Part shown: positions 29,045 to 57,867 of the stretch, one piece after another
Position numbering within the stretch: the first letter of the stretch is position 1
Layout of the letters: the number at the start of each line of letters is the position of its first letter
DNA from: Candidatus Latescibacterota bacterium
GTDB taxonomy: Bacteria > Krumholzibacteriota > Krumholzibacteriia > WVZY01 > JAKEHA01
Direction: 5' to 3'
NCBI GenBank assembly: GCA_963707635.1
Contig: OY970173.1
Location: forward strand, 2,801,489 to 2,865,488
DNA: 64,000 nt
The notes under the pieces: model-generated
Told to the model about the DNA's origin: nothing
The model's database searches: none
What the model saw: only the letters and a program-made list of their open reading frames with translations
Translations under genes and position numbers: made by a program

Positions 29045-29416
29045 TGGTGGAGGCGGCGGGAATCGAACCCGCGTCCGAAGAAGCAGCCGCAACGGTTACT
29101 ACGTGTGTAGTCCGTGGTGATTTCTCATCTCCGTACCCACCGCGGACGAAAGTGTAACGGAGACCAGCCCGGTAGTTTCTCGCGCCTCAGCCCCAGACAT
29201 AGCCTCGGCGCCAGCCCCCAGAGTATGACGCCCACTCACCGGCCCTGGAGACCCAGCCGGTGGGGACGGGAGCCTAAGCTAGCTTAGCTAGTTAGGCAGC
29301 CAGTGCGACGTTGTTGTCAGCACTTGAATTGGTGCCACCTGGTTTTACGAGGCTTGTGACCTGGCTCGACACGCAACCGGTACGCCCATCTTCCCCGTCG
29401 AGACCTGTTCGCCCCC
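29045..29416 (-). ncRNA. ssrA: tmRNA (transfer-messenger RNA, SsrA), standard one-piece form
   Basis: Minus-sense 5' end GGGGGCGAACAGGUCUCGACGGGG resembles the tmRNA 5' consensus. 3' end GCGGGUUCGAUUCCCGCCGCCUCCACCA is a perfect T-arm, 7-bp acceptor stem pairing with the 5' end (G3:U70, discriminator A) and encoded CCA. Internal tag reading frame ...GCU GAC AAC AAC GUC GCA CUG GCU GCC UAA encodes ...ADNNVALAA-stop. Confidence 0.9.
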
Positions 29417-34255: not shown

Positions 34256-34354
34256 GCACCTCCCAAAAAACTCGTGACGGATCCTGCCCCGGCACGTCTA
34301 ACCGGGAAACGGGCTCCATGCCCGAAAGCCAGCCACCGAACCGGAGGGCCTCCC

Positions 34355-35359
34355 ATGTTTCGACGTCTCGTGCTCCTGACCGTGCTGACCCTGATTGCCG
34401 GCTTCCGCCCGGCACAGGCCGACATCACGACGGGCCTCATCGCCCGCTACCCGTTTGACGGCAACGCCAACGATATCAGTGGAAACAACAATCACGGCTC
34501 GTTGGTGGGTGCGGTGGCGTCCACCACCGATCGTTTCGGGTTGCCCGACCGGGCCTATGCGTTCAACGGCCTGAATACCTATGTGCTGGTCCCTGCCTCG
34601 GCCAGCCTGAACTCGCCGACCACGGCTTGCACGCAGGCGGGATGGACGCTGCAATCCGGAGTGAGTAGTGTGGGATCGGGCTTCAATCCGCTCCTCATGA
34701 AGAGCAATAGCGGTGAGAATGCGTTCATGTACCGGATGATCACGAACCCCACCTACGTGGGCGCCGCATTCAACAACTGGAACACCGCCCAGAGCGCCGG
34801 GCAGGCGACACCGCTCAACGAGTGGCACCACTTCGCGACCGTGTTCAACGGCGCTACCGTCAGGTACTACTACGACGGCGCGTACATCGGGTCGCAGCCG
34901 ATGGTGATGACGATCACCCCGGACAACCGCCCGCTCACCATTGGCGCCGATGTGCCCGGTATTCTCGAGATCTTCAACGGCAAGATCGACGATGTGTCCA
35001 TCTACAGTCGTGCACTCACCGACGAGGACATCGTCGAGCTCTACAATCAGGCGACGCCGACTGCCGTGTCCCAATCGACGCCGCCGTTTTCGCTGGGCTA
35101 CAGCGTTCCCAATCCCAGCGGCGGCGAAAGCAGCGTGGAGTTCACCCTCGACTCGGAGCAGTTCGTCCAGCTCGACGTGTTCGATGTGGCCGGGCGCCGC
35201 GTGCGCGTCATGGAATCCGGAGTTCGTTCGGCCGGAGTCCATCGCGCGACGTGGGATGGGCGCCGGGACAACGGGAGCCATACGCCGTCGGGCGTCTATT
35301 TCTTTCGTCTCCACAGTGGAAACCACGTGCTGACGAGCCGAATCGTTCGGGTGCGGTAG
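34355..35359 (+). CDS. Secreted LamG / concanavalin-A-like lectin domain protein with T9SS-type C-terminal sorting domain
   Basis: Signal peptide (MFRRLVLLTVLTLIAGFRPAQA); LamG-like block (DGNANDISGNNNHGSLVG...WHHFATVFNG...GKIDDVSIYSRALTDEDI); C-terminus ...VPNPSGGESSVEF...VFDVAGRRVRVM...WDGRRDNGSHTPSGVYFFRL...SRIVRVR. Confidence 0.7.
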   Translation: MFRRLVLLTVLTLIAGFRPAQADITTGLIARYPFDGNANDISGNNNHGSLVGAVASTTDRFGLPDRAYAFNGLNTYVLVPASASLNSPTTACTQAGWTLQSGVSSVGSGFNPLLMKSNSGENAFMYRMITNPTYVGAAFNNWNTAQSAGQATPLNEWHHFATVFNGATVRYYYDGAYIGSQPMVMTITPDNRPLTIGADVPGILEIFNGKIDDVSIYSRALTDEDIVELYNQATPTAVSQSTPPFSLGYSVPNPSGGESSVEFTLDSEQFVQLDVFDVAGRRVRVMESGVRSAGVHRATWDGRRDNGSHTPSGVYFFRLHSGNHVLTSRIVRVR

Positions 35360-35376
35360 TTACGGCGGGGCAAAAA

Positions 35377-35406
35377 GAGAGGGCACCGGCTCGGCGGTGC
35401 CCTCTC
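35377..35406. terminator. Hairpin between the convergent genes 34355..35359 and 35429..36520
   Basis: gagagggcaccg-gctcgg-cggtgccctctc inverted repeat flanked by A/T-rich sequence. Confidence 0.45.
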
Positions 35407-35428
35407 GTGACAACGATGTCGGCAATGC

Positions 35429-36520
35429 CTATTTGCCGCCACCCTTCTTCCCCTGGTCGTGGGGAACGACCACCTCGACCCTGGTATCGGTAGCGTTGCC
35501 AGCGCTGTCCTCACAACGAACCAGAACCGTGTAGATGCGGGACGACCCGCCGCCAGAGCGCTCGGCGCGGAGCTCGAGGCCCGTGTCACCCGTGATCAGC
35601 CAGTCGGGTTCGGTGTTGCCGTCGCCCGTGCCATTGACCGGCTCGTTGCTGGTGACTCCGAGAATCTTGCACGTCGGCGTGGAATCGCACTCATCCTCGG
35701 CGTCCACCGCTATCCGGATGTTCCTCCACTTGTGGTTGGGCGGCCACAGGATTCCCGGTGTGGCAGTCACGCCGGTGATGACCGGCGGCTCCGTGTCCGT
35801 CCCGACGGTCACGGTGAACGCGCACGTCGAGGTATTCCCCAGCGAATCGACGGCCGTGCAGGTGACCGCCGTCTCTCCCACCGGGAACGTGCTGCCGGAG
35901 GGCGGGTCGCAGGTCACGACCGGCAGCGGATCGCAGTCATCGATCGCGGTCACGCTGAATTCGACGACCGCACCATCGGCGCCGGCACAGGCGATGGTGG
36001 TATCGGCCGCGCAAGTGATCTCGGGCGCGGTCACGTCGGGCTGAAACACCGGCGGGTCGGGCAGGAATGCCTGACTGCGCTGTGTTTCCAGCGCCGCCTT
36101 CCACGAAACCAGTAGCGACGAGAGCCCGGTCAGGTAGCCCTGCCGCGGTGTGGTGGCGGGATCGAAATCGGCCACCGTATCGAGCACCGCGGATCCAAGC
36201 GCGCCGTTGATGGCGCCTTCCCACTGTTGCAGAGCCGGCACGAGTTCGTCGAGGTATCCGGCGACCGTGGACTCGTCCGTCCATGCCGGCGTGTCATCCA
36301 GACCGGCTCCAAGCCAGGTCTCGATCGAATCCTCCCAGACCGGGAGGACGGGCGAAAGCTGAAAGAGGTAGATGTACTCTCCGCACCCGGCCTGCGCCCG
36401 GAATGCCCTGCTCTTGAATTGCTCTGGACCCGCGGGTGAACCTTCGTGGTTTCCGCATCCATAAATGACGAACGTGGCGACGAGCGCCGCCACGCCGAGG
36501 CGAATGTTGAGTTTGATCAT
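35429..36520 (-). CDS. Lipoprotein with HYR (hyalin-repeat) domain
   Basis: Signal peptide plus lipobox (MIKLNIRLGVAALVATFVIYGC); Cys-rich HYR-like block (PEITCAADTTIACAG...GETAVTCTAVDSLGNTSTCAFTVTV). Confidence 0.6.
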   Translation of the reverse strand: MIKLNIRLGVAALVATFVIYGCGNHEGSPAGPEQFKSRAFRAQAGCGEYIYLFQLSPVLPVWEDSIETWLGAGLDDTPAWTDESTVAGYLDELVPALQQWEGAINGALGSAVLDTVADFDPATTPRQGYLTGLSSLLVSWKAALETQRSQAFLPDPPVFQPDVTAPEITCAADTTIACAGADGAVVEFSVTAIDDCDPLPVVTCDPPSGSTFPVGETAVTCTAVDSLGNTSTCAFTVTVGTDTEPPVITGVTATPGILWPPNHKWRNIRIAVDAEDECDSTPTCKILGVTSNEPVNGTGDGNTEPDWLITGDTGLELRAERSGGGSSRIYTVLVRCEDSAGNATDTRVEVVVPHDQGKKGGGK

Positions 36521-36665
36521 GTGATGCCCCCGCGAGGATGCATGAAAGAGGCGGCCGTATGCCTCAAAATTAGAGCTCCATTATACCACTACAACCCCGG
36601 TCGCCGTCTACCTCCGTGCGCGGTGTGATAGAATCCCGGAGCGTGATCGATACCCACGCTCCAGC

Positions 36666-37286
36666 ATGCCTTCCCTCGCCGAGATTCTCGCCACGCCGGG
36701 TCCCAAGTGCCTCGACCGCGACTTCGAAGGCACCGTCGCCGACTTGTTTCCGGCCCGGCAACCGCTCGAGATCGAAATCGGAGCCGGCCGCGGCCGCTTC
36801 CTGCTCGAACGCGCCGCCGTCCATCGCGACCGCAACTTTCTCGGCCTGGACTACCGCTGGCGGTTCCTGCGCGAGGGGTTCGAGCGCGCGGAGGCGCGCG
36901 GGCTGGACAACCTTTGCTTCTTCAGGTCCGAGGCGAGCGAAATCATCGAGCACCTGGTCCCGGACGCAAGCGTTGCGATCTTCCACATCTACTTCCCCGA
37001 CCCGTGGCACAAGCGCAAGCACCACAAGCGCCGGCTGCTCACGCCGGATTTCTTCAAGCTGCTCCACCGGAGGCTGGAGCCGGGCGGACTCCTCGAGCTG
37101 GCGACGGACAACTTCGACTACATGGTGAGGTTCAAGCTGGCGCTGGTCGAGGCGGGAGACACGCTCTGGTCGGCGACGCGCGAGGCTCGAAACGAGAGAC
37201 TGATCGACCCGCACCTCAAGACCCACTACGAAGCGAAGTACATGCGCCAGGGCCGGGAGCTTTATTATATAGAGCTGCTCAAATGA
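36666..37286 (+). CDS. trmB: tRNA (guanine-N7)-methyltransferase
   Basis: SAM-binding LEIEIGAGRGRF and the TrmB signature FPDPWHKRKHHKRR. Confidence 0.8.
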   Translation: MPSLAEILATPGPKCLDRDFEGTVADLFPARQPLEIEIGAGRGRFLLERAAVHRDRNFLGLDYRWRFLREGFERAEARGLDNLCFFRSEASEIIEHLVPDASVAIFHIYFPDPWHKRKHHKRRLLTPDFFKLLHRRLEPGGLLELATDNFDYMVRFKLALVEAGDTLWSATREARNERLIDPHLKTHYEAKYMRQGRELYYIELLK

Positions 37287-37362
37287 CGGAGGATGCCGGC
37301 AGAAGCACCCATTGTATTCCTCTTTGAGCCTTCCGGAATGATCGCGCTATAATCCGCCCCGC

Positions 37363-38064
37363 ATGAAGAATCTCGACATCCACGCGCAGCCCGACGACAT
37401 GAGCTGCGGGGCCACCTGCCTGCACGCGATCTACCGCCACCACGGCGACCGGATCGCCCTGGACGACGTCGTACGCGACGTCGAGCGGCTCGAGGAGGGC
37501 GGGACCCTCGGCGTGTATCTCGGCACCCACGCGCTGCGCCGCGGCTACAAGGTGAGCCTCTACTCGTACAACCTCCAGGTCTTCGACCCGACCTGGCGCG
37601 CGCTCGGCCGCGACGAGCTGGTGGACCGGCTCGCGCGCCAGATGGCAGTCAAGCACCAGCGCAAACTCAAGATCGCGTCGCAGGCCTACATCGAGTTCAT
37701 GCGCCTGGGGGGAGAGATTCGCTTCGCGGAGCTTTCGCCCAAGCTGATCCGCCGCCACCTCACCGGCAACGTGCCCATGCTGGCCGGTTTGAGCTCCACG
37801 TATCTCTATCAGACCGCGCGCGAATACGGACCGCAGGGCGAGTACGACGACGTACGCGGTGTTCCCGGCGGGCATTTCGTGGTCCTGTTCGGCTACGACA
37901 ACGAGTCGCGCGACGTGCGCGTCGCCGACCCGTGGCAGCCCAATCCCGAGAAGGAGCGCTACTACGAGGTGGGAATCAACCGGCTCATCTGCGCGATCCT
38001 GCTCGGGGTACTCACCTACGACGCCAATCTGCTCGTCATATCGCCGAGCCGGAAGCGGGGCTGA
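37363..38064 (+). CDS. Papain-fold cysteine peptidase-like protein (C39-like / transglutaminase-like), first gene of the amidoligase operon
   Basis: Candidate catalytic Cys (DDMSCGATCL), His (GGHFVVLFGYD) and Asp (VRVADPW) in the order expected for a papain-fold peptidase; its stop lies 2 nt before the GTG start of the next gene. Confidence 0.5.
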   Translation: MKNLDIHAQPDDMSCGATCLHAIYRHHGDRIALDDVVRDVERLEEGGTLGVYLGTHALRRGYKVSLYSYNLQVFDPTWRALGRDELVDRLARQMAVKHQRKLKIASQAYIEFMRLGGEIRFAELSPKLIRRHLTGNVPMLAGLSSTYLYQTAREYGPQGEYDDVRGVPGGHFVVLFGYDNESRDVRVADPWQPNPEKERYYEVGINRLICAILLGVLTYDANLLVISPSRKRG

Positions 38065-38066
38065 CC

Positions 38067-39524
38067 GTGTCGCGCCTGTTCGTCGTCAATAATCCGAAGA
38101 ACTGGCCGCTCCACGTCCCTGGCGTGGAGGTGGTATCGGCGCGGAGCTACCTCACCGACTCGGCGTACAGCGAAATCGAGAACGCCAAGGTATTCAACCT
38201 GTGCCGGTCGTATCGATACATGAGCACCGGGTACTACGTCTCGCTCCTCGCCGAGGCCCGCGGCCATCGCGCCATCCCGAGCATCATGACGCTGCAGGAC
38301 ATGCGCCAGGACGCGATTTTCCGGATCCGCTCCGAGGACCTGGACGAGCTGATCCAGCGCGCCATGTCGCACCTCAAGGCGGAGCGCTACCAGTTGAGCA
38401 TCTACTTCGGCCGGCCGCTCGCGAAGCGCTATGAGCGCCTCGCGCAGCAGCTGTTCTCCTATTTTGAAGCGCCGCTACTGCGTGCGCACTTCGTCTATCG
38501 CAAGAAGTGGGAGCTGGACCAGATCGATCCGATCGCGGTCAAGGACATCCCCGACTGGCAGCGACCGTTCGTGGTCAACGCGGCCGGAGAGTACTTCCTC
38601 AAGCTCGAGCGCAGGCCGCGCCGGCACAAGACCTTCCGGTACGACCTCGCGATTCTCTACAACCCGGACGAGGCCGAGCCTCCCTCCGACCCGCGCTCGC
38701 TGCGGAAATTCTGCCGCGCCGCCGAACAGCTGGGCATGGATCCCGAGCTCATCACGCGCGACGACTACCGGCGTATCGCCGAGTTCGACGCGCTCTTCAT
38801 CCGCGAGACGACGGCGGTCAACCACCACACCTATCGGTTCGCGCGGCGCGCGGTCGCGGAGGGGCTGCCGGTCATCGACGACCCCGAATCGATTATTCGC
38901 TGCACCAACAAGGTCTACCTGGCGGAGATGTTCGACCGCTATCGCCTCGCCACGCCGAAGACGATGATCGTCCACCGCGAGAACGCGAGCCAGGTCGCGG
39001 AGACGCTGAATCTCCCCTGCATCGTGAAACAACCCGACAGCTCGTTCTCGCAGGGGGTGGTGAAGCTCAACACCCACAAGGAGCTCGACGACGAGATCGA
39101 GCGACGGCTGGAAAGCTCGGACCTCCTGATCGCGCAGGAGTTCATGCCGACCGACTTCGACTGGCGCATCGGCGTGCTGGAGGGCAAGGCGCTCTACGCC
39201 TGCCGGTATTTCATGGCGCACAAGCACTGGCAGATCCTGAAGCGCACCTCGCGCGGCCGGCTGCGGAGCGGGCGCGTGGAATCGATCGCGGTGCCGCGCG
39301 CGCCGCGCGACGTGATCCGGCTGGGCGTGGCCGCAGCCGGCGCGGTCGGCGACGGGCTCTACGGCGTCGACATCAAGCAGCGCGGCGACGAGTTCTACCT
39401 GATCGAGGTCAACGACAACCCGAGCATCGAGGCGGGCTACGAAGACAAGATCCTCGGCGACAAGCTCTATACCCGGATCATGAAGTCGCTCCTGCGACGG
39501 ATCGTCGAGCTAAAGGGAGCGTAA
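38067..39524 (+). CDS. RimK-like ATP-grasp ligase with N-terminal extension
   Basis: The C-terminal ~300 aa follow the RimK-type ATP-grasp pattern (LPVIDDPESIIRCTNKVYL..., PCIVKQPDSSFSQGV, DLLIAQEFMPTDFDWRIGVLEG, GVDIKQRGDEFYLIEVNDNPSIEAG); preceded by a ~180-aa N-terminal domain. GTG start at 38067. Confidence 0.7.
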   Translation: MSRLFVVNNPKNWPLHVPGVEVVSARSYLTDSAYSEIENAKVFNLCRSYRYMSTGYYVSLLAEARGHRAIPSIMTLQDMRQDAIFRIRSEDLDELIQRAMSHLKAERYQLSIYFGRPLAKRYERLAQQLFSYFEAPLLRAHFVYRKKWELDQIDPIAVKDIPDWQRPFVVNAAGEYFLKLERRPRRHKTFRYDLAILYNPDEAEPPSDPRSLRKFCRAAEQLGMDPELITRDDYRRIAEFDALFIRETTAVNHHTYRFARRAVAEGLPVIDDPESIIRCTNKVYLAEMFDRYRLATPKTMIVHRENASQVAETLNLPCIVKQPDSSFSQGVVKLNTHKELDDEIERRLESSDLLIAQEFMPTDFDWRIGVLEGKALYACRYFMAHKHWQILKRTSRGRLRSGRVESIAVPRAPRDVIRLGVAAAGAVGDGLYGVDIKQRGDEFYLIEVNDNPSIEAGYEDKILGDKLYTRIMKSLLRRIVELKGA

Positions 39525-39530
39525 CCGGGC

Positions 39531-40799
39531 GTGTCGCTGCGGCTTTTCGAGGGTTTTGGGGTCGAGCTGGAGTACATGCTCGTCCACGCGGACTCGCTCG
39601 ACGTCCTCCCCGCCACCGATCAGGTCATCCTCGCCGTCGCGGGAGACTTTATCGCCGAGGTCGAGCGCGGCGCGCTCGCCTGGTCGAACGAGCTGGTCAA
39701 CCACGTCATCGAGCTCAAGACCAACGGCCCCGCGCCGCAGCTTCGCGGGCTCGACGATGCCTTCGCGCGCGACGTGGTCGAAATCCTCGCGTTGCTTCGC
39801 CCGCTCGGCGGGCGCCTGATGCCGACCGCCACCCACCCGTGGATGGACCCCGCCCGCGAGACCACGCTCTGGTCGCACGAGGAATACAACGAGGTCTATG
39901 AGGCGTTCGATCGCATCTTCGGCGTGCGGGGGCACGGATGGGCGAACCTCCAGTGCGTGCATCTCAACATTCCCTTCTACGGGGACGCCGAGTTTGCGCG
40001 GCTCCACGCCGCCATGCGTCTGCTCCTTCCGATCATCCCGGCGATCGCGGCGAGCTCGCCCATCCTGGACGGACGCCTCACCGGCCTCATGGACAGCCGG
40101 ATGCATTTCTATCGCGAGAACACGAGGAAGATTCCCTCCATCACCGGCAAGGTGATTCCCGAGCCGGTGTACTCGAAGCGCGAATACGAGGAGACGATCC
40201 TGGGGCGCATGTACGCCGATATCGCGCCGCACGACCCGGAGGAGACTCTGCGCGACGAGTGGCTGAATGCACGCGGCGCCATCGCGCGTTTCGACCGGAG
40301 TGCCATCGAGATCCGCATCATCGACATCCAGGAGTGCCCCACCGCCGACTTCGCCGTCATGCACGCGATCACCTGCGTCCTGCGCGCGCTGGTCGAAGAG
40401 AAATGGCAGCCCGCCGAGCGCCAGCAACGGTTCGACACCGACGCGCTGAATGCCGTTCTACTCGACACCACCCGCCACGCGGAAGAGGCGGCGATTCGGG
40501 ATTCCGATTACCTCGCCGCGTTCGGCTTGCACGCAACCCCGGTGAAAGCCGGCGAGCTGTGGCAGCACCTGGTCGAAACCGTGGTGGCGCCCGATGCGGA
40601 CTTCGGCGATCCGTGGTCGTCGGCGATGCGTACCATTCTGGACGAAGGCACGCTCGCGCGGCGGATCGTGCGCGCGGTCGCCCGCGAGAAGCCGGGAGCG
40701 GCGGCCCGGGCCGGCCTCGAGCGTGACACGCTCCACCGAGTCTACGCCTCGCTGTGCGACTGCCTGAAGTGGAACCGGGGCTTCCATGCCACGCCGTGA
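39531..40799 (+). CDS. Glutamate-cysteine ligase family 2 (GCS2 / YbdK-like carboxylate-amine ligase)
   Basis: GCS2-like N-terminus FGVELEYMLV; ~420 aa; GTG start 7 nt after the upstream stop. Confidence 0.65.
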   Translation: MSLRLFEGFGVELEYMLVHADSLDVLPATDQVILAVAGDFIAEVERGALAWSNELVNHVIELKTNGPAPQLRGLDDAFARDVVEILALLRPLGGRLMPTATHPWMDPARETTLWSHEEYNEVYEAFDRIFGVRGHGWANLQCVHLNIPFYGDAEFARLHAAMRLLLPIIPAIAASSPILDGRLTGLMDSRMHFYRENTRKIPSITGKVIPEPVYSKREYEETILGRMYADIAPHDPEETLRDEWLNARGAIARFDRSAIEIRIIDIQECPTADFAVMHAITCVLRALVEEKWQPAERQQRFDTDALNAVLLDTTRHAEEAAIRDSDYLAAFGLHATPVKAGELWQHLVETVVAPDADFGDPWSSAMRTILDEGTLARRIVRAVAREKPGAAARAGLERDTLHRVYASLCDCLKWNRGFHATP

Positions 40800-41511
40800 C
40801 CGCGGCCGGCGCGACCTTGCGATCGTCGTGAGCTGCGAGCACGGCGGACATCGCGTCCCCGCGCACTACCGTTCGCTTTTCAAGGGCCACGAGCGCGTTC
40901 TAGCTTCGCACCGGGGGTGGGACCCGGGAGCGCTGGTGCTGGCGCGCGCGATCGCGCGCGTGTGCGGCGCCCGGCTGGTCGCCACCACGACCTCGCGCTT
41001 GTTGGTCGAATGCAACCGCTCGATCGGGCACCCGCAGCTCTTCTCCGAGTTCACGCGCCGACTCCCGCCCAACGAGCGCACACGCCTCCTGGAGCGCTAC
41101 TACCGCCCCCATCGCCGCGCGGTCGAAGAAGCGATCACCCGCGCGCTCGAGTCGCACAAACGCGTGTTGCACGTCGGCGTGCATACGTTCACGCCGGTCT
41201 TGAACGGCGTGCGGCGACGCGCCGACGTCGGCCTGCTCTACGACCCGAAGCGCCCGTTCGAGCACGCGGTGGCCGACTCCCTCGTCGTCCACCTCGGCCT
41301 GCGCGCGCCCGCGCTGGTTGTCCGCAGGAACTATCCGTATCGCGGCTGGTCCGACGGCCTGACCACGGCGCTGCGTTCGTGGCTCCCCCGCGGCCGCTAC
41401 GCCGGCATCGAGCTGGAAGTGAACCAGGCGCTCGCCGCCGGAAACGCCCACGCCTGGTCGGCGACGCGGCGCCGGATCGCGGCGTCGTTTCGGGACGCCT
41501 TTCTGGACTGA
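40786..41511 (+). CDS. N-formylglutamate amidohydrolase family protein
   Basis: LAIVVSCEHGGHRVP (metal-binding EHGG-type motif) and later HVGVHTFTP, typical of the formylglutamate-amidohydrolase fold; overlaps the upstream gene by 14 nt. Confidence 0.6.
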   Translation: MPRRDRGRRDLAIVVSCEHGGHRVPAHYRSLFKGHERVLASHRGWDPGALVLARAIARVCGARLVATTTSRLLVECNRSIGHPQLFSEFTRRLPPNERTRLLERYYRPHRRAVEEAITRALESHKRVLHVGVHTFTPVLNGVRRRADVGLLYDPKRPFEHAVADSLVVHLGLRAPALVVRRNYPYRGWSDGLTTALRSWLPRGRYAGIELEVNQALAAGNAHAWSATRRRIAASFRDAFLD

Positions 41512-41578
41512 GTCCGGAAAAGAGCGAAGCCCGCCGGCGCACCGACGGGCTTCGTCGCACAGAGTCTCACCGGCGAGC

Positions 41579-42226
41579 CTAGATACCGACCCCGACCCCT
41601 ACGCTCACAAATGGTTCACCGCTATCGTACGGTGAGTTGTCGTCCTGGAGGACGTCGAAGAGCACTTCGACCGTCAACGCGGTGCGAGGGCTGATCCGCT
41701 GGACCACCCCCCCGCCGACCAGGAGAAATGGCACCCATGTGCGATCTGTCTCCTGGCCGGAGATCTGGTACTCATAGCTCATGTAGTCGAATTCGGCGTG
41801 CCCGTAGAAGCGCGGCACCGGAAAGAAACGGGCGAAGACACCGCCGCCGTAATTGCTCGCCGTGACCTTCTTGCCGTAACTTTCGTCTTCGACGTATTCG
41901 TATGTCGCCTCGACGCCGACCGCCACTCGCGGCGTAAGCATCATGCCAATCATCGGTGAGATGCTGATGCTCGTGTAGTCACCAAACGTCGCGCCGACCG
42001 TTCCGCCGTAGAAAATGTCTCGCTTCTTCTTCGGCTTCTCCGCGGGCGGAGGCGCCTGGGTCGCCGCGGCGGTAGACGCAGCGGCGGGCGCCGGTGCGAT
42101 GGCCGCCGGAGCGGCGGTCGAATCAACGATCGTCGAATCGACCGTCGCCGATTCCGTCTGGGCGGACGCGTTCGCGGCGAGCAGAATCGTGAACATGACC
42201 GGGACGAGCGCGATTGATGACTTCAT
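41579..42226 (-). CDS. Small secreted protein, probable outer-membrane beta-barrel
   Basis: Signal peptide (MKSSIALVPVMFTILLAANASA) after GGAGGAACC; Ala/Pro-rich linker; alternating aromatic/Gly-rich C-terminal strands. Confidence 0.55.
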   Translation of the reverse strand: MKSSIALVPVMFTILLAANASAQTESATVDSTIVDSTAAPAAIAPAPAAASTAAATQAPPPAEKPKKKRDIFYGGTVGATFGDYTSISISPMIGMMLTPRVAVGVEATYEYVEDESYGKKVTASNYGGGVFARFFPVPRFYGHAEFDYMSYEYQISGQETDRTWVPFLLVGGGVVQRISPRTALTVEVLFDVLQDDNSPYDSGEPFVSVGVGVGI

Positions 42227-42430
42227 GGTTCCTCCACCTTCTCGCATGAACATGAAAGGCCGGACAATCGCCACAGTACGCCGATACAGGGACCGAGTCA
42301 CGACTTTTTCCGCGGGCCGTGGCCACAAGACCGCGACCCCATGCGACCCGCGTTTTTTCGTATTCCCTTTCATTTTCCCCTGTGATAAGTTTTCAACCGA
42401 TTCGTGACTGTAACCCTTGGAGGTCAACGC

Positions 42431-42871
42431 GTGAAACGCTTTTGCATTCTTGTCACTGGACTGTTTCTCGTCGCCACCGAAGCCGCGCCTGCATTTGCCG
42501 GCGTCGGGTTTCACATCGGGGGAACGATCGACCCGGATATGTTCCTGATCGGCGCACGCTTCAGGAGCCGCCCCCTCGCAGAGGCGATTTACGTGGTCCC
42601 CAACGCCGAGGCGGGCTTCGGCAGCGACATCCTCATGATCGGCGGCAACCTGGACGGCTACTATTCCTTCAAGACCAGCTCTGAGCTCCGGCCGTATATC
42701 GGCGGCGGCATCACGCTCAACTGGTTCGACTTCGACAACGGCGGGAGCGACACCGAGTTTGGCGGGAGCATTCTCGGCGGAATCTATGTCAAACCAACGC
42801 TCTTCTTCGAGACCAAGTGGGGACTGGGAGACGTTCCCGACTGGAAGTTCTACGTCGGCTGGAACAAGTAG
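42431..42871 (+). CDS. Small outer-membrane beta-barrel-like protein
   Basis: GTG start preceded by GGAGG; signal peptide (VKRFCILVTGLFLVATEAAPAFA); Gly/aromatic-rich strands ending ...WKFYVGWNK. Confidence 0.55.
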   Translation: MKRFCILVTGLFLVATEAAPAFAGVGFHIGGTIDPDMFLIGARFRSRPLAEAIYVVPNAEAGFGSDILMIGGNLDGYYSFKTSSELRPYIGGGITLNWFDFDNGGSDTEFGGSILGGIYVKPTLFFETKWGLGDVPDWKFYVGWNK

Positions 42872-42916
42872 GCTGGCGTCCACCTGCTCCAGGGGTCCGA
42901 TAAGCCCCGAGACAAA

Positions 42917-44106: not shown

Positions 44107-44270
44107 CGCACGCTGGCCCTCGGGCCTGCGTGCGTGATAGACTTATATCCAACGCGAGAGCCTCCTACCGACGCTCCCGCCTGATCGTCGACATCCGAAC
44201 GTCGGCCGGGTGTAGTTATGTGTTCTTCGGCGGCCACCGACTCCGCCCCCGAATACGCAGGAGGCCGTCC

Positions 44271-46682
44271 ATGCGCTCGTTTCTCCTCTCCCTGTCGATC
44301 ACTGTCAGCCTGTTTCCCGTCGCCGCGAGCGCCCAGTGGGGGCTCGACGGGGCTCCGATCTGCACCGCGTGGAACAGCCAGTACTCCCCGGACATTGTCT
44401 CCGACGGCGCGGGCGGAGCGATCATTGCCTGGTACGACTACCGTTTGAGCAGCCTGGATATCTACGTGCAGCGGGTAAACGCTCTAGGGATTCCGCAGTG
44501 GACAGCCAACGGTGTCGCACTGTGTTCGGCCGCCAACGAACAGTACTACCCGGTCGTCGTCTCCGACGGCGCGGGCGGAGCGATCGTCGCGTGGTACGAC
44601 GGCCGCGGAAGTAGCTACGATATCTACGCGCGGCGAATCAACTCGTCGGGGGTTCCCCAGTGGGCAGCCGACGGCGTCGCCCTCACAACCGCGGCGAACG
44701 GCCAGTTCAGCCCCACCATAGTTTCCGATGGTGCCGGAGGAGCGATCGTCGCATGGTACGATTTCAGCAGCGGATCCGATTACGACATCTACGCGCGGCG
44801 GATCAACGCGTCGGGAACTCCCCAGTGGACCGCCAACGGTGTCGCCCTCTGCACCGCTCTTAACGACCAGGCCTATCCCAACCTCGTCTCCGACGGCGCG
44901 GGCGGAGCGATCGTCGTGTGGAGTGACTATCGATCCGGCGCAGGCGACATCTACGCGCGACGGATCAATGCATCGGGGACGCCGCAATGGACCGCCAACG
45001 GCGTCGCCCTTTGCAGCACGGTCGGAGATCAGGCGCACCCCGCCATCGCCGTGGATGGCGCGGGCGGAGCTATCGTGGCATGGGACGACCGTCGCGGCGG
45101 ACCGAACTCGGATCTCTATATCCAGCGCGTGAACGCGTCGGGAACGCCGCAGTGGGCCCCCAACGGCGTCGCCATGTGCACCGCCATGAACGATCAGGAG
45201 TACCCCGCCATCACCCTCGACGGAGCGGGCGGTGCGATCGTGGCCTGGGAGGACTTCCGCAGCGGATTCGACCACGACATTTTCGCCCAGCGGATGGTCG
45301 CCTCGGGATCTCCCCAGTGGGCCGATAACGGCGTTGCCGTTGCCATCGCACCGAACTCGACATATCTGCCTACCATGGTTTCCGATGGCACCGGTGGTGC
45401 AATTCTAGCGTGGCAGGACGACCGCAACGGGTTCGACTTCTCCGACGTCTACATGCAACGGCTCGATGCGCTCGGGAACGCCCAGTGGACCCCCAACGGA
45501 GCCGTGATCTCGAGCGCGGTCGGTCACCAATACGACCTGGCGTTGATCACCGACGGTGCCGGAGGAGCGACGGTCGCCTGGACGGATGACCGCAGCAGTT
45601 TCTACAGCACCCACATCTACGCCCAGCGAGTCGAAGATCACTATGGGTACTGGGGGCACCCGGAGCCCGTCGTCAAGTCGGTCGCCGACATTCCGAAAGA
45701 CAACGGCGGAAGGGTCGCACTCAACTGGACGCCGAGTGGGCGCGACCTCTCGAACCCGCGCACGGTCGATCATTACACGATCTGGCGCGCGGTCGACGTC
45801 ATCCCGGCCCCGGTCTCGAACGCGACCGCGGTCTTGACCGACATTGCGAATGTGGGCGAGACCGCGGACGGACCGGTGTACGCGGTACTTCCTTCTTTGT
45901 CCGGCTACTACTGGGAGCTGGTGGGAACGCAGTCCGCGAACGCCTGGTCCGGGTACTCGTTCTCCACCTCGACGCGTGCCGATTCGGTCGCCGGGAATTC
46001 GGGAACCGAGACCTTCATGGTGGCGGCGCACCTCCAGTACGACTCCTATGTCGCGTTCCCGTCGAACGTGATGAGCGGCCACTCCGTCGATAACCTGGCT
46101 CCCGCCGCCCCGCTGATGCTCACAGCGCTGCGTGCCGGCGCCGACGTGCACTTGCAATGGAATCGCGTGCGCGTCCCTGACCTGCGCGACTACTCGCTGT
46201 ATCGCGCCACGTCCACCGGTGTGACCCCCGTGCCGATCAACTTCCTCGCGTCGGCCGAGGAGACGTTGCTGGTCGACGCAGGCGCGCCGTCCTCCGCGCT
46301 TTACTACATCGTGACCGCTATCGACGTGCACCACAACCAGGGTCCACCGTCGAATGAGGCCAGTGTCGGTGCGCTGACTGGCATCGGAAACACACCACCG
46401 ATCGCCGCCCTGACCGTGCTCGAGAACGTGCCAAATCCGTTCAATTCCCGAACGACATTGCGCGTCGGCCTGCCGCGGGCGAGCGAACTGGAGGTCGAGG
46501 TGTACGACGTCTCCGGCAGGCGGATCCGGGACGAACGGACCGCGGCGCTCGGGGCGGGTTGGCGAGAGGTTCCCTTCGAGGCGCGGAGCACAAACGGGAG
46601 TGTGCTCCCGAGCGGAGTCTATTTCTATCGCGTGACGGCAGCGGGACAGTCCGTCAGGGGCAAGATGGTGATCGCCAGGTAG
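44271..46682 (+). CDS. Secreted tandem-repeat protein (about nine ~55-aa repeats) with FN3-like region and T9SS-type C-terminal sorting domain
   Basis: ATG after GGAGG; signal peptide (MRSFLLSLSITVSLFPVAASAQ); repeats of the form ...PQWTANGVALC...VSDGAGGAIVAW.D.R....DIYA.R.NASG.; a HSVDNLAPAAP segment; C-terminus LENVPNPFNSRTTLRV...VYDVSGRRIR...SGVYFYRV...GKMVIAR. Confidence 0.7.
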   Translation: MRSFLLSLSITVSLFPVAASAQWGLDGAPICTAWNSQYSPDIVSDGAGGAIIAWYDYRLSSLDIYVQRVNALGIPQWTANGVALCSAANEQYYPVVVSDGAGGAIVAWYDGRGSSYDIYARRINSSGVPQWAADGVALTTAANGQFSPTIVSDGAGGAIVAWYDFSSGSDYDIYARRINASGTPQWTANGVALCTALNDQAYPNLVSDGAGGAIVVWSDYRSGAGDIYARRINASGTPQWTANGVALCSTVGDQAHPAIAVDGAGGAIVAWDDRRGGPNSDLYIQRVNASGTPQWAPNGVAMCTAMNDQEYPAITLDGAGGAIVAWEDFRSGFDHDIFAQRMVASGSPQWADNGVAVAIAPNSTYLPTMVSDGTGGAILAWQDDRNGFDFSDVYMQRLDALGNAQWTPNGAVISSAVGHQYDLALITDGAGGATVAWTDDRSSFYSTHIYAQRVEDHYGYWGHPEPVVKSVADIPKDNGGRVALNWTPSGRDLSNPRTVDHYTIWRAVDVIPAPVSNATAVLTDIANVGETADGPVYAVLPSLSGYYWELVGTQSANAWSGYSFSTSTRADSVAGNSGTETFMVAAHLQYDSYVAFPSNVMSGHSVDNLAPAAPLMLTALRAGADVHLQWNRVRVPDLRDYSLYRATSTGVTPVPINFLASAEETLLVDAGAPSSALYYIVTAIDVHHNQGPPSNEASVGALTGIGNTPPIAALTVLENVPNPFNSRTTLRVGLPRASELEVEVYDVSGRRIRDERTAALGAGWREVPFEARSTNGSVLPSGVYFYRVTAAGQSVRGKMVIAR

Positions 46683-47454: not shown

Positions 47455-47529
47455 TGGTGCGCCGCGAAGGACTCGAACCTTCAACCACCTGATTAAGAGT
47501 CAGATGCTCTACCATTGAGCTAGCAGCGC
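47455..47529 (-). tRNA. tRNA-Lys (anticodon CTT), CCA encoded
   Basis: Hand-folded from the minus strand: acceptor GCGCUGC / GCGGCGC, anticodon arm UCUGA-CUCUUAA-UCAGG (anticodon CUU), T-arm GAAGG-UUCGAGU-CCUUC, discriminator A, CCA. Confidence 0.85.
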
Positions 47530-48112: not shown

Positions 48113-48190
48113 GGGGTGGATGATGGGACTCGAACCCACGACAACCGGATCCACAATCCGGGGCTCTAACCAGCTGAGCTACACCCACCA
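48113..48190 (-). tRNA. tRNA-His (anticodon GTG) with encoded G-1 and CCA
   Basis: Hand-folded: acceptor GUGGGUG / CAUCCAC, anticodon arm CCGGA-UUGUGGA-UCCGG (anticodon GUG), T-arm GUGGG-UUCGAGU-CCCAU, discriminator C, extra 5' G (-1) as expected for tRNA-His. Confidence 0.85.
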
Positions 48191-54987: not shown

Positions 54988-55064
54988 TGGCGACCCCGCC
55001 AGGGATTGAACCTGGAACATCCAGCTTAGAAGGCTGGTGCTCTATCCAATTGAGCTACGGGGTC
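54988..55064 (-). tRNA. tRNA-Arg (anticodon TCT), CCA encoded
   Basis: Hand-folded: acceptor GACCCCG / CGGGGUC, anticodon arm CCAGC-CUUCUAA-GCUGG (anticodon UCU), T-arm CCAGG-UUCAAUC-CCUGG, discriminator G, CCA. Confidence 0.85.

Positions 55065-57790: not shown

Positions 57791-57867
<77 letters not shown>

Follow-up and report, generated by a model that had tools for sequence, protein, structure and literature searches.

A four-gene operon of ligases and hydrolases

The window analysed here is a 64,000-nucleotide (nt) stretch from the genome of a Candidatus Latescibacterota bacterium (GCA_963707635.1; contig OY970173.1, positions 2,801,489–2,865,488), and our subject is a set of four plus-strand genes at 37363–41511, here called g1 to g4. 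They are predicted to encode a papain-fold peptidase or amidase, a RimK-like ATP-grasp ligase with an N-terminal RLAN domain, a carboxylate–amine ligase of the GCS2 family and an amidohydrolase of the FGase family. A preliminary description of the locus, made from the sequence alone, had proposed these assignments, and Pfam profile searches confirm all four domain families.

The first gene, g1 (37363–38064, 233 amino acids (aa)), starts with ATG and ends with TGA; g2 (38067–39524, 485 aa) and g3 (39531–40799, 422 aa) start with GTG and g4 (40786–41511, 241 aa) with ATG. The open reading frame (ORF) list and a reading of the junctions give intergenic distances of 2 nt and 6 nt, followed by a 14-nt overlap of g3 and g4 (ATGCCACGCCGTGA). 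Together with the conserved gene order described below, this bears out the tightly packed plus-strand operon of the preliminary description; of the coupling distances it gave, the 2-nt gap and the 14-nt overlap hold, and the supposed 7-nt gap measures 6 nt (39525–39530). The longest ORF for g2 begins at 37932, within g1. We prefer the GTG at 38067 because it lies 2 nt past the g1 stop and is preceded by the purine-rich GGAAGCGGGG, because JGI gene calling, done independently on a relative of 98% identity (P0001) with the same operon, yields the same 485-aa product, and because the g2 homologues in our alignment all start at this position. The motif AAGGGAG lies 12 nt upstream of the g3 start.

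A sigma-70-like promoter site (TTGAGC-18 nt-TATAAT, 37324–37353, plus strand) precedes g1; it is a consensus match only, with 10 of 12 positions agreeing, and the sole such match within 36500–42000. Since its -10 box stops 9 nt short of the g1 ATG and 37348–37365 contains no Shine–Dalgarno sequence, the operon mRNA may be leaderless. Downstream, a GC-rich hairpin with a 13-bp stem (41525–41554) stands between g4 and a convergent minus-strand gene that ends at 41579. It has a T-run on the minus-strand side only and likely marks the end of the transcription unit. Immediately upstream of g1 lies trmB (identified with NCBIfam), and the promoter-like site falls between the two. We rejected trmB as an operon member, given this site and its occurrence as a neighbour in 0 of 80 loci compared (one genome per species; the best 80 of at least 598 species with a g2 relative). 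The promoter-like site, the terminal hairpin and the lack of conservation of trmB as a neighbour make g1–g4 look like a self-contained transcription unit.

The G+C content of the operon (64–67%) is the same as that of the rest of the window, and an Rfam search of the whole window at the gathering threshold found no riboswitch or leader RNA at the operon. None of the four proteins has an N-terminal signal sequence or a convincing membrane segment; the model places the single hydrophobic stretch among them (g1 aa 208–226) inside the papain core, as a buried helix and strand. All four enzymes appear to be cytoplasmic and active.

An ATP-grasp ligase with a probable degenerate ATP-grasp-like module

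The g2 product matches Pfam RLAN with 164.6 bits (cut-off 25) and Pfam RimK with 27.5 bits (cut-off 21), so that the N-terminal extension noted in the preliminary description is RLAN and the RimK-like call stands. Pfam and a structure model place RLAN at aa 1–188 (38067–38630, plus strand); Pfam RimK, NCBIfam and profile matches to the Protein Data Bank (PDB) place a RimK/LysX-clade ATP-grasp ligase at aa 189–485 (38631–39524, plus strand). RLAN (PF14401) is described as an uncharacterised alpha+beta domain. For the RLAN of g2, a high-confidence model gives a reduced ATP-grasp-like fold, nearest to LysX/ArgX and RimK. The domain has no invariant Lys, Asp or Glu in the homologue alignment and lacks catalytic residues. 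We rejected a recent internal duplication of the C-terminal ATP-grasp as its origin: hhalign gave a probability of 0.5% and no sequence signal, and kinship is visible by structure only. From the model we infer that g2 is built in tandem, an ATP-grasp-like module that is degenerate and non-catalytic preceding an active ligase of the RimK clade; RLAN is probably a recognition or assembly domain.

The ligase half retains the ATP and Mg motifs (K321, K333, E358, D365-W-R367, D435 and E447-x-N449), and of these K321, K333, E358, R367, D435, E447 and N449 do not vary among 12 sequences from different phyla. Across phyla, RLAN is about 60% identical and the remainder of g2 59–69% identical; no database record is identical to the exact g2 sequence. 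PDB profile matches include 3vpd and 1uc8. The best NCBIfam matches, all under their cut-offs, are rimK_fam (TIGR00768; 63.9 bits, cut-off 143.4), MptN (61.7 bits) and LysX (59.8 bits), and CofF also matches; the glutathione synthetase model gives 37 bits against a cut-off of 408. The preliminary description had allowed that the ligase might prove to be a housekeeping RimK with rpsF nearby. A bona fide RimK, the L-glutamate ligase of ribosomal protein S6, was rejected on the TIGR00768 score, far under the cut-off, and on architecture, with 485 aa including RLAN as opposed to a single ATP-grasp of about 300 aa. No rpsF was found in the 64-kb window, and neither rpsF nor rimA/rimB is a conserved neighbour among the 80 loci.

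The architecture of g2 raises the possibility that the cassette reversibly tags a conserved protein encoded elsewhere. In such a scheme the RLAN–RimK protein would add one or more glutamates to a C-terminus or side chain, the GCS2 enzyme would add or branch a second residue, and the C39-like and FGase-like carboxypeptidase-fold enzymes would expose or remove the tag. RimK acts on ribosomal protein S6, LysX acts on LysW, PafA, a related carboxylate–amine ligase, attaches Pup, and on tubulin TTL is opposed by CCP deglutamylases. In structure and sequence, both halves of g2 are nearest to RimK and LysX/ArgX, enzymes whose substrates are protein C-termini. A module for recognising macromolecules would be expected to look much like RLAN, an extra domain that is large, strongly conserved and non-catalytic. 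The three core proteins also share about 50–60% identity across phyla, a level that docking on a conserved macromolecule, or on one another, would account for. Yet none of the 80 loci has a linked candidate target or carrier gene, the window has no rpsF, and RLAN–RimK relatives adjoin small-molecule transporters and amino-acid enzymes. By comparison, lysW accompanies lysX, and rimK accompanies rimA and rimB in Pseudomonas. We consider such tagging, the main rival to the small-molecule explanation given below and a process discussed for RimK-like enzymes (PMC4431377), rather unlikely. Its more specific form, a prokaryotic counterpart of tubulin-type glutamylation with RLAN as target adaptor, GCS2 as branching enzyme and the thiol peptidase and amidohydrolase as erasers, is unlikely.

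A divergent GCS2 ligase

The g3 product (39531–40799, plus strand) is a divergent carboxylate–amine ligase of the glutamate–cysteine ligase (GCL) type. It matches Pfam GCS2 with 104.9 bits (cut-off 21), the only model to be passed and one of superfamily level, which upholds the original call. The best NCBIfam matches are models of the YbdK type, NF010039 (65.8 bits, cut-off 371) and TIGR02050 (55.3 bits, cut-off 176.4); we rejected a YbdK-type ligase, both models being under cut-off and there being no PDB match to YbdK even by profile. The glutathione and ergothioneine models score lower still (TIGR02048, 29.3 against 249 bits; NF010041, 44.7 against 332; EgtA, 14.9 against 370.8). A pairing of GshA or EgtA with GshB was rejected because g3 and g2 failed every equivalog model. 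A single-sequence search of the PDB found no match for g3, and its alignment profile found one weak match, to a plant GCL (9ufc, E = 0.0045). Residues invariant in 26 homologues comprise a G-x-E-x-E motif (E12, E14) and N53, E54, H58, E61, H102, H135, R248, E260, R262, D265 and E268.

Two hydrolases

The g1 product passes two Pfam models, Peptidase_C39_2 (27.3 bits, cut-off 24) and Peptidase_C39 (26.2 bits, cut-off 22); it matched no NCBIfam model, and no PDB entry by sequence. The papain/C39 catalytic set (Q9, C15, H171 and D189) is invariant in the cross-phylum homologue alignment. The closest structural neighbours of the g1 model are the C39 domain of PCAT1 (14.2), LahT (13.9) and ComA (13.9), followed by the phytochelatin-synthase-like Alr0975 (13.0) and a C39-like protein (12.8); lower in the ranking are the acyl-transferring BtrH-type CtaG (9.4) and the UfSP and ZUFSP tag peptidases. 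With leader peptidases, isopeptidases and an enzyme that cleaves glutathione among them, these neighbours confirm the papain fold, and the earlier peptidase call is sustained by the Pfam models and catalytic set as well. As modelled, g1 would be a stand-alone cytoplasmic papain-fold (C39-like) thiol peptidase or amidase, with a helical insert of about 65 aa (aa 76–133).

The second hydrolase, g4 (40786–41511, plus strand), belongs to the FGase family of metallo-amidohydrolases, which resemble N-formylglutamate amidohydrolase (Pfam FGase, 95.8 bits, cut-off 28.9). PDB matches are to Atu2144 (2odf, 1e-22) and an FGase (2q7s, 3e-6), and H19, D46, R71, N77, R78, H133, E159 and E211 are invariant in the alignment. 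The formylglutamate amidohydrolase type of the preliminary description is therefore retained, and HutG itself is rejected: the N-formylglutamate deformylase equivalog TIGR02017 gives 21.8 bits against a cut-off of 278.75, and the neighbours of g4 are ligases and a peptidase, with no hut genes.

A conserved cassette in many phyla

More than 8,000 relatives of g2 are present in the sequence database, the closest named ones being from Candidatus Krumholzibacteria (81%). The best 80 loci come from Planctomycetota, Bacteroidota and Balneolaceae, Acidobacteriota, Nitrospirota, Verrucomicrobiota, Omnitrophota, Fibrobacterota and Spirochaetes, and from Gamma-, Beta-, Alpha- and Delta-proteobacterial groups. 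Cultured carriers include Thiobacillus thioparus DSM 505, Blastopirellula marina DSM 3645, Pontibacter ruber and Marivirga aurantiaca. A further cultured carrier, Legionella adelaidensis, has the same run of RimK-family, GCL-family and FGase genes under RefSeq names.

Searched with tblastn, the 80 loci yielded a C39-like gene 73 times, GCS2 74 times and FGase 45 times. The order C39, RLAN–ATP-grasp, GCS2 (then FGase) and the strand are kept in 73–74 of the loci (about 92–94%), an arrangement far beyond chance; the one exception in order and strand is L049, where GCS2 lies several kb off on the opposite strand. The gene-neighbourhood check that the preliminary description proposed thus gives a strong result. 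Among the 56 loci with at least 900 bp of DNA after GCS2, an FGase gene follows in 41 (39 by clustering and two divergent), and the remaining loci carry unrelated genes; g4 is an accessory member of the cassette. Flanking ORFs in six loci that might have encoded a substitute peptidase or ligase (L032, L044, L047, L079, L007 and L030) had no relevant Pfam match and were rejected. Profile comparison of the upstream ORFs of L079 and L047 with the g1 alignment, and of the downstream ORF of L047 with the g3 alignment, found no similarity. The few loci lacking the C39-like gene or GCS2 are genuine partial or stand-alone variants. We also considered a defence system and rejected it, as none of the four proteins matched a PADLOC family.

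When all ORFs of 70 aa or more in the 80 loci were clustered against one another, only these four conserved families emerged, the other clusters being their antisense shadows. There is no conserved small ORF upstream or downstream in the 80 loci, which argues that no precursor or carrier is encoded in cis, and no transporter, ABC exporter or cofactor-biosynthesis gene is a conserved neighbour. These results bear on whether the locus could be a bacteriocin cluster or one for a ribosomally synthesised and post-translationally modified peptide (RiPP), in which the C39 enzyme would remove a double-glycine leader and the ATP-grasp enzyme would macrocyclise or otherwise modify the precursor, as in graspetides. 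The C39 matches of g1 and its structural likeness to PCAT1, LahT and ComA, with which it shares the fold and the Q/C/H/D catalytic set, accord with this, as does the making of graspetides by ATP-grasp ligases (PMC8939145). However, the leader peptidases of PCAT/ABC exporters differ from g1, which is stand-alone, carries the helical insert and has neither a transporter nor a precursor peptide, nor any other conserved neighbour, in the 80 loci. Further points against a RiPP cluster are the intergenic distances in the window (2, 6 and -14 nt), the place of g2 in the RimK/LysX clade and not the MdnC/PsnB clade, and the 50–60% cross-phylum identity of the three core proteins, a degree uncommon among bacteriocin loci, which are generally more variable. 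We therefore regard it as very improbable and largely refuted.

RLAN–RimK proteins outside the cassette

A HMMER scan with RLAN alone returned 843 cluster representatives. Several of these proteins (P0324, P0298, P0301, P0337, P0351 and P0382) carry a GNAT acetyltransferase N-terminal to RLAN. P0324 is a complete GNAT–RLAN–RimK protein of 646 aa (loci L085/L086, 3349–5457), and its gene adjoins a carboxylate transporter of the CitMHS/DcuC type and a second GNAT. Such fusions suggest a scheme in which an N-capping enzyme is paired with RLAN–RimK on small molecules. One candidate identity for the fusion, Ngg of the NAGGN osmolyte pathway (PMC8070244), is not supported: a tblastn search with P0324 against 72,556 plasmids returned 17 records, none from Sinorhizobium. 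The ngg gene of S. meliloti is presumably located on pSymB.

Pseudomonas aeruginosa (NZ_CP133752.1; L082, 4902–6491) has a stand-alone RLAN–RimK paralogue of 529 aa, which we believe to be PA1345-like. It is flanked by a Glu/Asp ABC transporter, pagP, an SDR gene and an aminotransferase, and a literature search found no functional study of it. Within the cassette itself, a GATase_4 gene (class-II amidotransferase-like, by Pfam) occupies the FGase position in one locus and lies next to the cassette in two more, the three belonging to three phyla (L021, 3757–4545, plus strand; L008, 10433–11491, minus strand; L017, 5205–6095, minus strand). We take the GATase_4 family to include YafJ and EgtC, the latter a gamma-glutamyl amide hydrolase.

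Proposed function

The explanation we favour, at a little short of an even chance, is that the two ATP-dependent amide ligases of the cassette assemble a short gamma/alpha-glutamyl peptide on a small acceptor and that its two amide hydrolases cut the peptide back. The peptide would be made non-ribosomally, and the acceptor would be an amino acid or other metabolite; the substrates, reaction order and product proposed here are drawn from family precedent. The GCS2 enzyme g3 would activate a carboxylate (in its family, the gamma-carboxyl of glutamate) as an acyl phosphate and join it to an amine, yielding gamma-glutamyl-X. The ATP-grasp enzyme g2 would then activate the free alpha-carboxylate of gamma-glutamyl-X and add an amino acid (L-glutamate, by clade precedent), with RLAN holding the substrate or a partner enzyme. 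In the opposite direction, g4 could cut the N-acyl-glutamate bond of a C-terminal N-acylated glutamate and so undo the g2 step, and g1 could hydrolyse or transfer the other amide, as phytochelatin-synthase-like enzymes do with glutathione and an amidase domain does with glutathionylspermidine. The founding member of the FGase family hydrolyses N-formyl-glutamate, glutathione synthesis likewise combines a GCL-family enzyme with an ATP-grasp ligase, and characterised members of the RimK/MptN/LysX/CofF clade handle glutamate or aminoadipate.

A small-molecule product is favoured because no target or carrier is linked to the cassette, because its paralogues have metabolic neighbours, and because GNAT can stand in for GCS2 and GATase_4 for FGase. 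Several considerations weigh on the other side. Every chemical step rests on analogy, and the distance of g3 from characterised GCLs leaves glutamate as its acyl substrate no more than a family-level guess. The two-ligase, two-hydrolase symmetry is not universal, since FGase is missing in about a quarter of the 56 loci, and the GNAT fusions do not discriminate, since GNATs acetylate proteins too. Known small-molecule ATP-grasp ligases do not need a conserved 188-aa RLAN, and the structural neighbours of that domain, LysX/ArgX and RimK, act on protein C-termini; given its conservation and these neighbours, a macromolecular substrate fits at least as well. A glutathione-like gamma-glutamyl tripeptide as the specific product is unlikely, with about the same weight as the tubulin-type scheme above; glutathione synthesis is not known from the phyla concerned.

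If the acceptor is something other than an amino acid, the small-molecule reading has a special case, the editing of a glutamyl tail on a cofactor or metabolite. In that case GCS2 would add gamma-linked glutamate, g2 an alpha-linked cap, and the hydrolases would shorten the tail. CofF caps F420, MptN caps tetrahydromethanopterin, and folate gamma-glutamyl hydrolase shortens tails. The ranking of MptN (61.7 bits) and LysX directly after rimK_fam among the NCBIfam matches of g2, and the additional match to CofF, fit this idea, as does the making of polyglutamate tails by dedicated ligases on cofactors such as methylofuran (PMC8141765). All of the scores are nevertheless far under the equivalog cut-offs, no cofactor-biosynthesis gene is linked in any of the 80 loci, and the taxonomic spread, judged from record titles, appears to fit no single glutamylated cofactor. 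We hold this special case to be improbable.

Comparison with known systems

Iyer, Abhiman, Burroughs and Aravind (2009, Mol Biosyst 5:1636; cited in PMC4431377) reportedly predicted, computationally, a neighbourhood type that combines RLAN–RimK, GCS2 (COG2170), FGase and a papain-like enzyme, and are said to have considered peptide tags for such neighbourhoods; Pfam RLAN was presumably derived from that study, which is probably the comparative-genomics literature alluded to in the preliminary description. The window has the same four families, the same RLAN on the ATP-grasp protein (164.6 bits) and the same operon logic, with GCS2, papain-fold and FGase genes adjacent in one operon, and is a straightforward further instance of this type. 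What our analysis may add is the modelled assignment of RLAN to a reduced ATP-grasp-like fold and the GNAT–RLAN–RimK architecture, as predicted from sequence. A full-text literature search (RLAN, PF14401 and combinations of the families) found no experimental study of the cassette, in line with the statement in the preliminary description that no such system has been characterised biochemically.

The proposed cycle of building and trimming has partial parallels. The RimK/RpsF systems (E. coli RimK; Pseudomonas RimABK; PMC4741518, PMC10092738) share the RimK-clade ATP-grasp with g2, and RimK/RimB likewise encodes an opposing hydrolase alongside the ligase. The partners differ, however: a retropepsin and an EAL protein in RimABK as opposed to GCS2, C39-like and FGase enzymes, and RimK lacks the 188-aa RLAN. 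Glutathione and phytochelatin chemistry, with GshA, GshB and a phytochelatin-synthase-like enzyme (Nostoc Alr0975, PDB 2btw), is comparable in logic, but g2 is of the RimK clade and not of the GshB or Ddl type, cysteine as a substrate of the cassette has no supporting evidence, and g3 and g2 fail the GshA, EgtA and GshB models.

The amidase of trypanothione synthetase-amidase is a CHAP domain. In that enzyme (PMC2427367), an ATP-grasp synthetase forms, and a papain-type cysteine amidase breaks, one and the same amide of a small gamma-glutamyl peptide conjugate; the glutathionylspermidine and trypanothione enzymes hold both activities in one protein, whereas the cassette has separate genes together with a second ligase and a second hydrolase. 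Structurally, the two halves of g2 come closest to the ligases of the LysX/ArgX–LysW system, which belong to the RimK clade and couple an amino acid to the carboxylate of a glutamate. Unlike that system, the cassette has no gene for a LysW-like small carrier in the 80 loci and no downstream lysine or arginine biosynthesis genes. In mammals, NAT8L together with RIMKLA or RIMKLB makes N-acetylaspartylglutamate and beta-citrylglutamate. This sequence of an N-capping enzyme followed by a RimK-type ligase that adds glutamate (RIMKLB being a RimK homologue; PMC7907349) may be echoed by the bacterial GNAT–RLAN–RimK fusions, but the partner in the window is a GCS2 ligase and not an acetyltransferase.

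That the cassette is so well conserved implies that its product is specific and important. Identifying this product would bring to light either a new common bacterial metabolite, for instance a peptide resembling glutathione or an osmolyte, or a new system of post-translational modification, and the cultured carriers make the question directly testable. The window adds one more instance of a widespread cassette.

Other features of the window

Upstream of the operon, comparison of 34274–36520 with a 98%-related contig (L081, 3459–5224) shows that in L081 tyrA (chorismate mutase/prephenate dehydrogenase) directly adjoins trmB and that the window has two extra genes between them. These encode a protein of 361 aa, the C-terminus of which resembles, as judged by eye, the secretion-tail region of FlgD_ig/Por_Secre_tail proteins of L081, and a lipoprotein-like protein of 363 aa on the minus strand. 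On this comparison, the difference reads as an insertion or deletion between close relatives. Downstream of the operon, the 434-aa ORF at 41579–42883 (minus strand) is probably too long; the gene called here on the related contig has 230 aa, and within the ORF an internal Met is followed by the signal-peptide-like MKSSIALVPVMFTILLAANASAQ, which suggests a small outer-membrane or secreted protein.

The only Rfam matches in the window are a minus-strand tmRNA gene (29045–29416, 180.6 bits) and four minus-strand tRNA genes (47458–47529, 48115–48188, 54991–55064 and 57794–57867). Two plus-strand genes (44130–46682 and 34274–35359) encode large, repetitive secreted proteins with C-terminal sorting-type domains, and the FlgD_ig and Por_Secre_tail matches on the related contig suggest that these are cargo of a type IX-like secretion system.

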